Notes: generated from the letters alone by a model not told the origin. Shown: positions 25,504-28,744, numbered from the stretch's first letter. The stretch: DNA of 64,000 nucleotides from Thermodesulfobacteriota bacterium (GCA_031082315.1 JAVHLC010000011.1:35117-99116); one strand, 5' to 3'. Translations and numbers: made by a program.

Positions 25504-26385
25504 ATGAACACCATTGCCAAGCCACCCGTTTCTGGAGTCGTCCTCGGAATCGATGTAGGCTTTTCTGCGAAATCGGCGACGACGGGTCTTTGTCTGCTGA
25601 GTTGGGACACCAATTCTATGAAGATCTCGTTCGTACGCACACGGACAGGAAGTGTTGACCGGCGCAGGGATATACGTGCACTCGTCGGTAGCGCTCAATT
25701 GCTCGCTGTGGCGATTGACGGTCCCCTCGTTCGTGGCCTTCAGCGCATCTCGCACTATCGCGCAGCAGAGGCTCTTCTTTCTCGGAGTGTTCTCCAGAAG
25801 CGAGGCAAACCTGGTCAAACCAACTCGCCAGTTGGTCAGCAGTTACACGCTCACGCTACCGAACTGGCTGAAATCGTGCTCACTGAATGTGCAGTCGATG
25901 CAGCGGCGCACTACCAGGCGATTCACGAACGTTGTATCGTAGAAGCGTTCCCGAACATGTTCCTCGCCGCTGGCGTCCCTGAGGCAGAGCTTCCGAGTCT
26001 TCGCCGCAATGCATCCGATGCGTATTGGAGAGGTCTTGTGGTTCAGAGCGGGCGGTTACTTCAACTTATGGGCAGTCTCCTTCCTGGACGGAAACCTTCG
26101 TGCGAGCTTTGCACATTCATCAACCATGAAGACCGTGCCGCATTTGTTTGTGCGCTTTCCGCATTGTCAGTCTTATCACAACGGCACGTGGCTGTCGGCG
26201 ACCCATACGATGGCGATATTATCCTGCCACCACGGATTTGGTGGGGCAAAGCGTCAATTGGTACCAACCCGTGGATGGAAGTTGTCCTTCGCGACAACTT
26301 GGCTTCAGTCCGTCGTAGCAGGAATGGCAGTAAGCATCATGGCGACGCGCGCGTGGTTCTGCATGCCGGCGAATGGCAGCTGTAG
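25504..26385 (+). CDS. Hypothetical protein, possibly an RNase-H-fold (DUF429-like) nuclease
   Basis: GIDVGFS...AIDGPL...RAAEALL...EAFPNMFL resembles the DUF429 motif order as I recall it. Higher GC than its neighbours. Starts 32 nt after the protease gene. Confidence 0.4.
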   Translation: MNTIAKPPVSGVVLGIDVGFSAKSATTGLCLLSWDTNSMKISFVRTRTGSVDRRRDIRALVGSAQLLAVAIDGPLVRGLQRISHYRAAEALLSRSVLQKRGKPGQTNSPVGQQLHAHATELAEIVLTECAVDAAAHYQAIHERCIVEAFPNMFLAAGVPEAELPSLRRNASDAYWRGLVVQSGRLLQLMGSLLPGRKPSCELCTFINHEDRAAFVCALSALSVLSQRHVAVGDPYDGDIILPPRIWWGKASIGTNPWMEVVLRDNLASVRRSRNGSKHHGDARVVLHAGEWQL

Positions 26386-26411
26386 GAGTTACGTGGACTG
26401 GTTGGCCTAAG

Positions 26412-26976
26412 ATATAACGTTCATGCAGAACGTGCTTGACGAATTGTGAATAAGCAGGACATCCGCTTGGGGCGGACGGCAGTTACTCTATCTCCCGAAC
26501 CCCGGGGCTTCGTCATGTTATGCTGACTTGCCCGGATAGTTGGCTTTGTACGCCATTTACTCGCCACGTCCTGTGGCTCGCCCTTCGGGCCAGCAAATCT
26601 GTTCAAAATTGTTTATCCTGACGATTTTGTCTGTTCCCCGGATCAAGTCCGGGGCAGGCTTGACTCATAGCTTTGCAGTCCGGGTTACCGCTCCCTGCGG
26701 TCGCTCTCGCCGTTGGCTCGTGGTCTCCGCTACGCTCTGGACCCTTCAGACGGTCTCTCACGATTCCGCCCTTGCCTTCGGCTAGTACTTCTGCTAACGT
26801 ATCACTAAGTAGGCAGGGTTCACCCTGTTAAATTCCCCCCAGGGAACCCTATTTAACAGGGTAAACGTACAGGGGGGACTTACACCCCATAAGCTCACGC
26901 CCATGCCGGGCGTACACAATTCGTTCAAGAGGGACGCGGCATAAGGCCGCCGCGCCCCTTAGCTTTGGAGTTCGGG
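26412..26976 (+). other. attC-type site A, interrupted by an intron-like element
   Basis: Without 26419-26917 it reads ATATAAC-AATTC-GTTCAAG-AGGGACGCGGC-ATAAGG-CCGCCGCGCCCC-TTAGCTTTGGA-GTTCGGG (66 nt). The left half matches the classical 59-be pattern AAC-AATTC-GTTCAAG as I recall it. Confidence 0.7.
26419..26917 (-). mobile_element. ORF-less group II (class C-like) intron-like RNA, copy A
   Basis: Minus strand starts GUGUACGCCCGGCAUGGGCGUGAGCUUAUGGGGUGUAAGUCCCC and ends ...CAUGAAC (AY). It shares GCAGAAGUA, CUGAAGG, GAGUAAAUG and AAGUCAGCA blocks, in order, with the O. iheyensis IIC intron as I recall it. No RT ORF. Confidence 0.6.
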
Positions 26977-26987
26977 CCTAAAAGAAA

Positions 26988-27644
26988 ATGGACTTTTTCG
27001 ATCCTAAGTTAACATTTGATCCGCAGAAACCGTTCTATGGGCTGGTTGTGGCTTACGTTGCTCAGGTACATGGCCTCCTAGATTTGGTAAGCCGAGGGCT
27101 TCGAGAGGAATGGGAAAAGCTTAGAGGTAGACACCAAAACAGTCGGCTGTCCTCACTTGAAATGGAGAAAATGCTCAGTGACGGAATCAGGGAGGGATAC
27201 AGGGATCACATACAAGCGGTACTGCGCTCACAATCGGCACCGATTATCGGTGTCCAAAGGTTGGTCTCACGTTTGCGAGAAGGAGTAAAAGTAGATACAG
27301 TGCGTTTAGCAAATGAAATATTTTCGAAGCATCAATATCCGGTTGAAACCTATAACAAAATGACTGCGGGAGCCTTGCTAATTGTGTCTTGGGAAGTTAC
27401 AAAGTCCGACCATAGCCAAGATCCACTCTGGGAGTTCCACCGTCATTGCAGAAACGCTGCTGCTCATAATGGGAATTTCAACTTCCAGCACGGAGAGCCA
27501 AAACGACCTGCAAAGTGGGGAGCGCTTGAAATCGTACTTACCCTACAAGACACGCCAATTTTCCCAAATTCCTCTGGCAGAGGCTTTATTGGTCCTGGTG
27601 ATGTTTTGTATCTGCTGGCTGACATTGAAGCAAAATTCTATTAA
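26988..27644 (+). CDS. Hypothetical protein with HEPN-type Rx4H motif (Abi-like)
   Basis: 218 aa. HRHCRNAAAHNGNF contains R-N-x3-H. It is a single-gene cassette. Confidence 0.5.
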   Translation: MDFFDPKLTFDPQKPFYGLVVAYVAQVHGLLDLVSRGLREEWEKLRGRHQNSRLSSLEMEKMLSDGIREGYRDHIQAVLRSQSAPIIGVQRLVSRLREGVKVDTVRLANEIFSKHQYPVETYNKMTAGALLIVSWEVTKSDHSQDPLWEFHRHCRNAAAHNGNFNFQHGEPKRPAKWGALEIVLTLQDTPIFPNSSGRGFIGPGDVLYLLADIEAKFY

Positions 27645-27646
27645 AG

Positions 27647-27778
27647 CCCGAACAAATCAATCCAGCCGGGCTGTGCTCTCGCGGAATAAAATCGTTCCCT
27701 CGCGCGCTGATTCGCGCGTCGGGAACAATCCGCTCGAGCAGACAGCCCAAGGGCCGCAGCTCAGATGGGCCGTTGGCT
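27647..27778 (+). other. attC-type site (long, 132 nt)
   Basis: Bounded by CCCGAAC and GTTGGCT. Arms GGGCTGTGCTCTCGCGGAAT and AATCCGCTCGAGCAGACAGCCC pair. Central hairpin GTTCCCTCGCGCG...CGCGCGTCGGGAAC. CCCGAAC is the exact reverse complement of the cassette start GTTCGGG. Confidence 0.7.
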
Positions 27779-27791
27779 GAGAGGGAAAAAG

Positions 27792-27884
27792 ATGGAACAG
27801 TATATCGGTTTGCTGATTTTCCTTGGACTTCTGGTCAGTTGCACATCCCCCGTGAACAAAAGGCGATCGGAGAAAGCAAGATGA
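27792..27884 (+). CDS. Possible 30-aa mini-lipoprotein ORF
   Basis: MEQYIGLLIFLGLLVSCTSPVNKRRSEKAR, with a lipobox-like LVSC. RBS GAGGG lies 6 nt upstream. ATGA overlap with the next ORF. Confidence 0.3.
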   Translation: MEQYIGLLIFLGLLVSCTSPVNKRRSEKAR

Positions 27885-28204
27885 ACGTACTTCAGATTCG
27901 TTGGCAACGTCTCGTGGACGAACGGGGCCAAACATGTGATCGCTGTGGCGCAACCGAAACAGCGATAGAGGATGGGTTCCAAAAGCTAAGGCGTTCCCTG
28001 AAGGAACTGGACATAGACGTCGTTCTCGAGAAAACAGCTCTCAATCCTTCTACGTTTTCCAAGGATCCGCTCCAGTCAAATCGTATCTGGATTGCCGGAA
28101 AGCCGATCGAGCAGTGGCTCTCGGCCACCACTGGCCAGAGCCGATGTTGCTCCACATGCGGAGATTCGGAATGCAGAACTGTCACGGTTGATGGCAATAC
28201 CTAA
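27881..28204 (+). CDS. DUF2703-like small Cys protein
   Basis: MNVLQIRWQRLVDERGQTCDRCGATE...CCSTCGDSECRT. Start chosen at MNVLQ rather than the longer tracked ORF. Confidence 0.65.
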   Translation: MNVLQIRWQRLVDERGQTCDRCGATETAIEDGFQKLRRSLKELDIDVVLEKTALNPSTFSKDPLQSNRIWIAGKPIEQWLSATTGQSRCCSTCGDSECRTVTVDGNT

Positions 28205-28210
28205 GGACTG

Positions 28211-28744
28211 GCGGGACGTTCATGCAGAACGTGCTTGACGAATTGTGAATAAGCAGGACATCCTCTTGAGGCGGACGGCAGTTACTCTATCTCCCGAACC
28301 CCGGAGCTTCGTCACGTTGTGCTGACTTGCCCGGAGACTGGGCCTGGTATGCCGTTTACTCGCCACGTCCTGTGGCTCGCCCTTCGGGCCAGCAAAGCTG
28401 TTCAAGATCGTTCATCCTGACGATTTTGTCTGTTCGTCGGCTCATAGCTTTGCGCTCCGGGTTACCGCTCCCTACGGTCGCTCTCGCCGTTGGCTCGTGG
28501 TCTCCGCTGCGCTTCGAACCCTTCGACGGTCTCTCACGATTCCGCCCTTGCCTTCGGCTGGTACTTCTGCTAACGTATCACTAACTAGGCAGGGTTCACC
28601 CTGTTAAATTCCCCCCAGGGAACCCTATTTAACAGGGTGAACGTACAGGGGGGACTTACACCCCTTAAGCTCACGCCCATGCCGGGCGTACACAACTGCG
28701 TTCACGCGACCTCGTGACCTCGGCGCGTGACCCACATGTTATTA
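28211..28744 (+). other. attC-type site B, interrupted by an intron-like element
   Basis: Without 28218-28693 it reads GCGGGAC-AACTGC-GTTCACGCG-ACCTCGTGACCTCGG-CGCGTGA-CCCACAT-GTTATTA. Confidence 0.6.
28218..28693 (-). mobile_element. ORF-less group II (class C-like) intron-like RNA, copy B
   Basis: About 90% identical to copy A with the same ends. Lacks one ~23-nt hairpin. Shows at least one compensatory U-A to C-G change in a small stem. Confidence 0.6.

Follow-up and report, generated by a model that had tools for sequence, protein, structure and literature searches.

The window analysed here, a 64,000-nt stretch of DNA from a Thermodesulfobacteriota metagenome-assembled genome, holds two integron cassette arrays, and in the first of them (array 1) two repeats, c1 (26417-26915) and c2 (28216-28691), each stand directly to the left of an attC-like sequence. 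An initial annotation had read these repeats as introns that split two attCs and had raised intron-mediated cassette assembly as a possible explanation. Our analysis leads elsewhere: the repeats are truncated stubs of group IIC-attC introns, and the orphaned attCs and the truncated or fused cassettes beside them were probably left by decay and recombination among intron copies, not by cassette assembly. Array 1 runs, in order, from cassette 1 (a Trypsin_2-like open reading frame, or ORF, and a DUF429 ORF) to c1, an attC remainder (attC_1), and a cassette with a 218-amino-acid (aa) ORF and an intact attC, and then on to DUF2703, c2, a second attC remainder (attC_3), an NDT-like cassette with an intact attC, and a catalase unit.

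Identity and structure of the two stubs

Both repeats lie on the minus strand, measure 476-499 nt, and are matched there by the Rfam group II D1-D4-3 model (RF02001). From its 5' end (GTACGCCCGG), by way of the hairpin of exon-binding site 1 (EBS1), to CUUAUUC, stub c1 comprises 468 nt of domain I of a group IIC-attC intron (26448-26915), to which a terminal segment of 31 nt is joined (26417-26447); c2 has the same layout, with 445 nt of domain I and its own 31-nt end (28216-28246). The sequence at the stub 5' ends, TTGT|GTACGCCCGGCATGGGC, is shared with the Klebsiella aadA2-attC intron (L001) and with a Methylocalor intron, and these stub ends fall at the canonical TTGT on the bottom strands of two different attCs, antisense to the cassette genes. 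To the right of c1, the attC_1 remainder (26916-26976, plus strand) consists of spacer, L'', loop, L', and R' (GTTCGGG), with no R''; its bottom strand ends in ...CTTGAACGAATTGT at the intron 5' end, and these 14 nt of attC_1 are also the 5' exon of the Klebsiella intron. To the right of c2, the attC_3 remainder (28692-28744, plus strand) ends in R' GTTATTA. The EBS1 of c2 (ACAAC) pairs with its own 5' exon (GTTGT), and both in c2 and in L249, a third copy of the stub subfamily, EBS1 fits the copy's own 5' exon at 5/5 positions. Across the wider family, the domain I hairpin loop GCACAAnA covaries with the base before TTGT (ACAAG/cTTGT, ACAAC/gTTGT, and ACAAT/aTTGT, at loci L135, L139, L188, L225, and L002 and at 28300-28330 in the window), and because of this covariation with a 5' exon base we take the loop to be EBS1; at L225 the EBS1 complementarity reaches 12/13 nt.

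Collinear homology between the stubs and the Klebsiella, Methylocalor, and metagenomic family introns is limited to domain I. In both c1 and c2, the break comes directly after the conserved CUUAUYC, where the family goes on with GGGGAGAUCUG and the window copies with ACAAUUCGUCAAGCACGUUCUGCAUGAACGU (31 nt). This terminal segment, which in intron sense reads ACAATTCGTCAAGC and then forms a hairpin (ACGTTC-TGCAT-GAACGT), is identical in c1 and c2 and does not occur in other family introns. Full-length relatives of the stubs carry a reverse-transcriptase ORF of 403-489 aa with a YADD motif; c1 and c2 contain no reverse-transcriptase gene and hold no ORF. A covariance model of domains 5 and 6 (D5-D6) that we built from 20 complete family copies, R1, scored 87-89 bits on two reference introns and 81 bits (E = 1e-19) at 31128-31209 in the window, and neither R1 nor a regular-expression search found D5-D6 or the 3' terminus (...ACCCGAU) in c1 or c2. 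The stubs have no D2-D6 and no 3' splice site, and their left junctions are not splice junctions, at which complete copies show a 3' exon beginning with T(A/G/C)... Because the flanking DNA is no 3' exon, there is no R'' to the left of the stubs, and because D5-D6, the reverse-transcriptase gene, and the 3' splice site are absent, the stubs cannot be spliced out. In total, these comparisons identify c1 and c2 as one rearranged, dead IIC-attC intron stub.

Several other approaches to the stub end were set aside. The silence of RF00029, the generic group II D5-D6 model, was dropped as proof of a missing D5 and replaced by R1, given that RF00029 also gave no match on the bona fide IIC-attC intron tested (L001), where RF02001 maps to domain I. 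By analogy with the Klebsiella intron, the stub end ...ATGAACGT might be taken as a truncation at the reverse-transcriptase start codon, but collinearity with relatives puts the break inside domain I; EBS1-primed reverse transcription was likewise rejected as the cause of the break, since EBS1 lies 60-70 nt from it. A search for outward promoters in the stubs found no sigma-70-like site on the plus strand. The stubs also contain a long perfect nested hairpin (CCCTGTTAAAT...ATTTAACAGGG; window 26790-26875 and 28585-28655), part of an additional 130-170 nt within domain I that is absent from the Klebsiella and Methylocalor introns and from most metagenomic relatives.

A scan of metagenomes with the 23-nt intron 5' end returned at least 120 loci of the family. 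These include full-length introns (a reverse-transcriptase ORF, then GAACCGCCC..TGCGGACCCGCA..GGGTGG, then ...CTTACCCGAT), many ORF-less introns with both ends, and 5' fragments cut at varied points. Among two-ended family copies (L129-L248), 16/26 are ORF-less mini-introns of 390-860 nt in which D5-D6 is kept; ORF-less bacterial group II introns have been described as rare (PMC4424553).

Cassette boundaries and the history of the DUF2703 cassette

The initial annotation had observed that the clean cassettes are complementary at their boundaries and that mismatch is confined to the two repeat-bearing cassettes, and both parts of this observation stand. In array 2, all three pairs of 5' heptamer and R'' match at 7/7: GTTAAGT (45398) with ACTTAAC (45769), GTTAGGC (45826) with GCCTAAC (46255), and GTTATGC (46307) with GCATAAC (46932). 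The stub-free pairs of array 1 are GTTCGGG (26970) with CCCGAAC (27647), at 7/7, and GTTATTA (28738) with TAAGAAC (29453), at 6/7, so that four clean cassettes match fully and a fifth at six positions. At the repeat-bearing ends, by comparison, GTTCGGC (24726) of cassette 1 meets ATATAAC (26412-26418) at 3/7, and GTTGGCT (27772) of DUF2703 meets GCGGGAC (28211-28217) at 2/7. Mismatch thus affects 2/2 repeat-bearing ends versus 0/5 stub-free ends (Fisher p = 0.048), or 3/3 intron-associated ends versus 0/5 once the catalase end is added (Fisher p = 1/56).

ATATAAC and GCGGGAC had been taken as R'', and they are not, because the last two bases of each (AC) come from the shared repeat, which starts at 26417 and 28216. 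CCTAAG does lie to the left of both repeats, at 26406 and 28200, as had been noted; the accompanying claim that the left flank is the gene's stop region fails for copy 2, in which DUF2703 is truncated, the stop is fortuitous, and the CCTA of CCTAAG is DUF2703 coding sequence. Folding agrees with the annotation that attC-like structure is found only to the right of the repeats: no attC-like fold was detected in the 95 nt of either left flank (z = +2.2 and -0.3), which rules out a concealed attC there. A complete attC is an imperfect palindrome of the form R''-L''...L'-R', in which R'' is the complement of the heptamer at the 5' end of the same cassette. The five stub-free attCs have this form; at both stub-bearing sites only L''...R' survives. 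The R' boxes at those two sites, GTTCGGG (26970) and GTTATTA (28738), open the next cassettes at a G|TT boundary, with R'' matches of 7/7 and 6/7. The attCs that close these next cassettes served as controls: that of the 218-aa-ORF cassette (27647-27778, plus strand) is intact, with R'' CCCGAAC, R' GTTGGCT, and a fold z of -4.6, and that of the cassette assigned as NDT-like by Pfam (29453-29531, plus strand) has R'' TAAGAAC and R' GTTGACC.

Do intron-bearing attCs generally mismatch their cassettes? We searched the flanks of 17 complete family introns, each with 500 nt of flank or more, for a heptamer complementary to R''. An exact complement lies 410-985 nt away in 8/17, versus 1.5 expected from dinucleotide shuffles (p = 2e-5), and several further introns of the set show 6/7 matches; a general mismatch is therefore not borne out. 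As a rule, the attC that holds a complete family intron matches its cassette, and carrying an intron does not by itself predict mismatch.

Intron-free homologues of the DUF2703 cassette, which the initial annotation had named as a check, do exist. In the window, this cassette (27773-28203, plus strand) is 3'-truncated: DNA identity with its homologues stops at 28203, at ...GGCAATACCTA, and a 12-nt junction filler (AGGACTGGCGGG, 28204-28215) leads into stub c2; the native attC, its R'' ATCTAAC, and about 52 codons of the gene have been lost. In homologues at 98% and 95% identity, the C terminus extends 52 residues further. An origin of the filler in the deleted DUF2703 tail was considered and rejected, as the similarity is not significant (p about 0.6). 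In two close relatives, L004 and L005, full-length DUF2703 is followed by the 3' end of an IIC-attC intron exactly at ATCTA|; D5-D6 is kept in L004, and only ~18 nt of the intron 3' end remain in L005. Two more distant homologues are intron-free. One (L251) opens with GTTAGAT and has R'' ATCTAAC, a 7/7 match, with an attC of ~85 nt (fold z = -4.2), and the other (L252) opens with GTTAGAT and ends in ATCTGAC, a 6/7 match, with an attC of ~75 nt (fold z = -6.6). Because both are intron-free with a matching R'', DUF2703 was formerly a normal cassette with its own attC.

The native attC of L251 and L252 (ATCTAAC-CAGGCAATACAGCCG...GCCAAC-GTT) is unrelated to the attC_3 remainder to the right of c2, and the possibility that attC_3 is DUF2703's own attC is refuted by these two loci. 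Equally, the reading of DUF2703 as a resident gene without an attC, derived from L004 and L005, is refuted by the intron 3' end that R1 places at R'' and by the attCs of L251 and L252. Judging by this series of relatives, an intron entered the R'' of DUF2703; in the window the gene end, R'', and the native attC have been lost, and the attC that now follows DUF2703 is that of another cassette, itself lost. Searches for identical proteins gave no match for DUF2703, the 218-aa ORF, or the catalase.

The body of cassette 1 (24727-26416, plus strand) comprises, by Pfam, a Trypsin_2-like ORF (24752-25471) and a DUF429/RNase-H-fold ORF (25504-26385), followed by 31 nt of 3' flank, with no R'' or attC of its own. 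The DUF429 ORF is full length; the gene is not truncated, because its homologues measure 280-305 aa. The junction between cassette 1 and c1 was seen independently in a Logan contig from another sample (L003). The canonical G|TT leader junction (leader|TTCGGCC) implies that cassette 1 entered the array as a finished cassette, and by analogy with DUF2703 we infer that it lost its own attC.

How do these histories bear on cassette formation? IIC-attC introns target R'' (TTGT/T, bottom strand), and a model in which they form cassettes has been published (Leon and Roy 2009), so the proposal that the initial annotation mentioned does exist. Applied to array 1, this model would have an isolated intron-bearing attC join a gene that was not yet a cassette and whose terminator carried an intron, with two intermediates caught in the act. 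That such a model is in the literature, that the left flanks have no attC feature, and that mismatch occurs only at the repeat-bearing ends all speak for it. However, DUF2703 is elsewhere a cassette with a matching attC and is truncated in the window, the entry junction of cassette 1 is a canonical G|TT, complete introns sit mostly in matched attCs, and stubs without D5-D6 or a 3' splice site make the required splicing and reverse-transcription step impossible. We consider this constructive route highly improbable at the locus, and for DUF2703 it is already largely refuted. The suggestion of intron-mediated cassette assembly falls with it: DUF2703 was already a complete cassette, the stub is unspliceable, and cassette 1 entered finished.

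Exchange among intron copies and the shared stub end

A third remnant, r3 (31128-31245, minus strand), lies outside the region first annotated (26385-28744) and closes array 1. Identified with R1, it consists of the tail of the reverse-transcriptase gene and an intact D5-D6 and ends in ...CUUACGCGAU. Its 3' splice junction adjoins the catalase unit (top strand ...CCCAATA|), and its 5' truncation adjoins the stop of an unrelated 415-aa ORF; the ortholog of r3 in L004 adjoins full-length DUF2703. The catalase R'', CAATA(AC) (31118-31127), matches the 5' heptamer GTTGACC (29525-29531) at 3/7, and the catalase is either a cassette or a gene at the distal end of the array. Between the window and L004, the remnants are identical at 103/107 positions (96%) 5' of D5 and at 39/56 (about 70%) through D5-D6, and their 3' exons are unrelated. 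Because identity drops there and the 3' exons differ, the endpoint of an exchange can be placed at the D4/D5 border, and recombination between intron copies appears to have reshaped the end of the array in one of the two lineages, that of the window or that of L004. The earlier suggestion of a gene-intron-attC fusion by recombination therefore survives in part: the gene and the attC at copy 2 are mismatched in origin and intron copies recombine (window/L004), but no assembly resulted.

The two stubs c1 and c2 differ by 30 substitutions and 2 indels, with 9 of the substitutions in the EBS1 hairpin; their interiors are 6% diverged and mosaic relative to L249 and L003, and their last 48 nt are identical. 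L249 breaks ~40 nt earlier, and because it does so, the identical end of c1 and c2 is private to the source genome. In L003 (1810-1851; Logan, SRR22315508), the stub beside DUF429 has a third allele of the EBS1 region (GAGACTGGGCCTTGTATGC), which is neither that of c1 nor that of c2 and suggests exchange among copies within the population. The 31-nt segment matches the top-strand start of an aadA-type attC at 13/14 positions in inverted orientation and a region of the reverse-transcriptase gene at 20/23; both candidates, an inverted attC piece and a reverse-transcriptase scrap, were considered, and neither is proven. A scan of a genome collection with the 18-mer AGCACGTTCTGCATGAAC gave 120 unrelated loci, mostly actinobacterial.

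The observations above are best explained by the following mechanism. IIC-attC introns would first have retrohomed into several attCs of array 1. Deletions and recombination events with endpoints in or between intron copies would then have taken intron 3' parts and R'' half-sites, along with the 3' end of the cassette lying upstream and the cassette bodies to which attC_1 and attC_3 had belonged. An unrelated gene would thereby have become fused to each surviving attC remainder. As a candidate last step, one truncated stub end may have been copied from its sister stub in templated break repair, followed by end joining; we posit copying for the ends of c1 and c2 because they share the same break nucleotide, the same 31 nt, and an identical last 48 nt next to an interior that is 6% diverged, and the 12-nt filler is consistent with repair copying and end joining. 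The resulting units have neither a paired R box nor a spliceable intron. On this account, the mismatch between R'' and the 5' heptamer is a by-product of decay.

Could the attCs instead have been swapped? Complete introns in DUF2703's attC and in attC_3 could have crossed over, and likewise at cassette 1, with an internal deletion later; this would be the joining step of the Leon-Roy model acting on pre-existing cassettes, in which a gene is joined to a foreign attC via a hybrid intron. The intron at the DUF2703 R'' in L004 and L005, the exchange endpoint between the window and L004, the foreignness of attC_3 to DUF2703, and the mosaic interiors of c1 and c2 are all in keeping with a swap. Against these, a swap would require each copy to have undergone a further deletion, both ending at one nucleotide position and with an identical 31 nt; no hybrid full-length intermediate was seen; and the junctions show filler and a cut gene, which are signs of illegitimate rather than homologous joining. 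We regard the swap as possible, though unlikely. Only tentatively, then, would we view intron copies as portable homology through which cassettes in natural arrays exchange attCs or have them grafted on; a DUF2703 series running from an intact cassette to an intron at R'', an intron-by-intron crossover, and a stub fusion to a foreign attC (window, L004, L005, L251, and L252) is an equally tentative reconstruction.

The shared end invites another thought, namely that the ~0.5-kb unit is itself a non-autonomous mobile element with its 3' end at the terminal hairpin, either helped in trans by a full-length intron or moving as a small cassette (TTCATGC...attC...G) into secondary GTT sites. Identical ends at two places with different flanks, a left junction that reads ...ACG|TTCATG, the terminal hairpin, and the 5/5 fit of EBS1 to the 5' exon in c2 and L249 would agree with mobility. 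However, the unit exists in only two copies, separated by 1.8 kb within a single genome; L249, a related copy, has a different end point; the terminal 60 nt of the stub occur in none of the 120 metagenome loci examined, and a scan of a viral collection with the stub end gave no matches; and the unit has no attC or R'' for an integrase reaction. Nor is any D5-less group II RNA known to be mobile. An element of this kind is very unlikely. More improbable still is an assembly artefact in which contigs were mis-joined at two repeats. The source is a metagenome-assembled genome, and short-read contigs do break in the repeat, but an independent contig contains the copy-1 junction, the junctions fall in unique sequence, the 12-nt filler included, beyond the shared repeat, and relatives show consistent graded variants of the locus.

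Decay and recombination among intron copies thus remains the reading that we prefer, and several points weigh against it. For cassette 1, no closely related copy that keeps its native 3' end was found, and the copy-2 left junction is without independent assembly support. Although a genuine 3' splice junction borders the catalase unit, its R'' matches at only 3/7, which plain loss of R'' does not explain. For the 31 nt there are two candidate sources, since they resemble the beginning of an attC in inverted orientation and, to a lesser degree, part of the reverse-transcriptase gene. The order of events may have been either one illegitimate deletion or an intron-by-intron crossover followed by an internal deletion. 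Finally, an attC remainder with an intron 5' end in the R'' slot may or may not serve the integrase.

Setting of the arrays and comparison with known systems

Both arrays are preceded by the same ~150-nt leader (24578-24726 and 45251-45398), which ends ...TATAATATATAATG|TT and runs to ...ATAATG|TT in array 1 and array 2 alike. The leader of array 1 (24578-24726, plus strand) is attI-like, ends at the G of G|TTCGGC, and forms an 88% repeat (family label D5) with 45251-45375; the same leader is also present in the related genome at L004 4574-4791. No integrase gene was found beside the leaders, and by ORF inspection no integrase-sized ORF adjoins either of them; no tyrosine recombinase was found among the Pfam-scanned ORFs, a minority of those in the window. 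At L004 4785-4800, the leader runs directly into a GT(T/C) inside the attC of the 218-aa-ORF cassette (ataatG|TCCCCTCGCGCG; compare window ~27694), which looks like secondary-site recombination with deletion of upstream cassettes. A 34-nt piece of the NDT-like cassette attC (window 29473-29506) recurs identically at L004 484-517, upstream of a BrnT toxin gene, and hints at a further array or attC relic there.

Other repeats are dispersed in the window. REP (repetitive extragenic palindrome)-like hairpin repeats lie at 8607-8753, 24474-24552, 41231-41377, and ~45113-45175, and one of them (24518) has the 12-mer CCGTCCGCCCCA in common with stub c1 (26468-26479). In an ORF of 335 aa (19049-20056), an IS200-like Y1 transposase domain occurs together with a DnaA C-terminal domain. 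A repeat of 70-90 nt rich in GCTGA(C/T)(G/A)GCTGA motifs is present in three copies (41571-41723, 56554-56696, and 62154-62303) upstream of unrelated genes, adjoining a CCGGAAAC...GTTTCCGG hairpin.

How integron cassettes gain their attCs is still unsolved, and the sole concrete proposal involves IIC-attC introns. What the locus shows by comparison is that these introns litter chromosomal arrays with stubs and that their copies recombine, with orphaned attCs and fused or truncated cassettes as the outcome and no assembly. In practical terms, D5-D6 should be sought in an attC "intron" before the sequences on either side of it are taken for exons, and a family-specific D5-D6 model is needed for this purpose because RF00029 gave no match on L001. 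If intron copies do act as portable homology, the locus would be the first natural record of the Leon-Roy joining step, and the twice-used identical stub would hint at a recurrent pathway of template-copied repair.

Among known systems, the window stubs resemble group IIC-attC introns such as S.ma.I2 and the Klebsiella aadA2-attC intron in their 5' terminal sequence, in their TTGT target after a hairpin, in their orientation opposite to the cassette genes, and in a homologous domain I that includes the EBS1 loop. Unlike functional introns of this class, they consist of 445-468 nt of domain I only, with no D2-D6, reverse transcriptase, or 3' splice site, and unlike their relatives they carry the 130-170 nt of extra domain I sequence and the unique terminal 31 nt. 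They are also like UHB.F1 and H.ha.F1/F2 (PMC7923331), degenerate intron remnants in cassette arrays or clusters of attC sites lacking integron-integrases (CALINs) without a neighbouring integrase; what differs from those fragments is that the window has a pair of copies whose 3' truncation falls at one and the same nucleotide, plus another copy truncated at its 5' end. Gene cassettes are reported to become fused after partial or total loss of an attC (PMC4670013), and here too an upstream cassette lost its attC and is now contiguous with the next sequence; unlike in those fusions, the loss in the window goes with intron remnants, and what lies downstream is an attC remainder instead of the next ORF. 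As in the model of Leon and Roy (2009), intron homology can re-pair a gene with another attC; the comparison of the window with L004 gives evidence of an exchange inside an intron remnant. In contrast to that model, the genes were already cassettes, the product is defective, and splicing is impossible.

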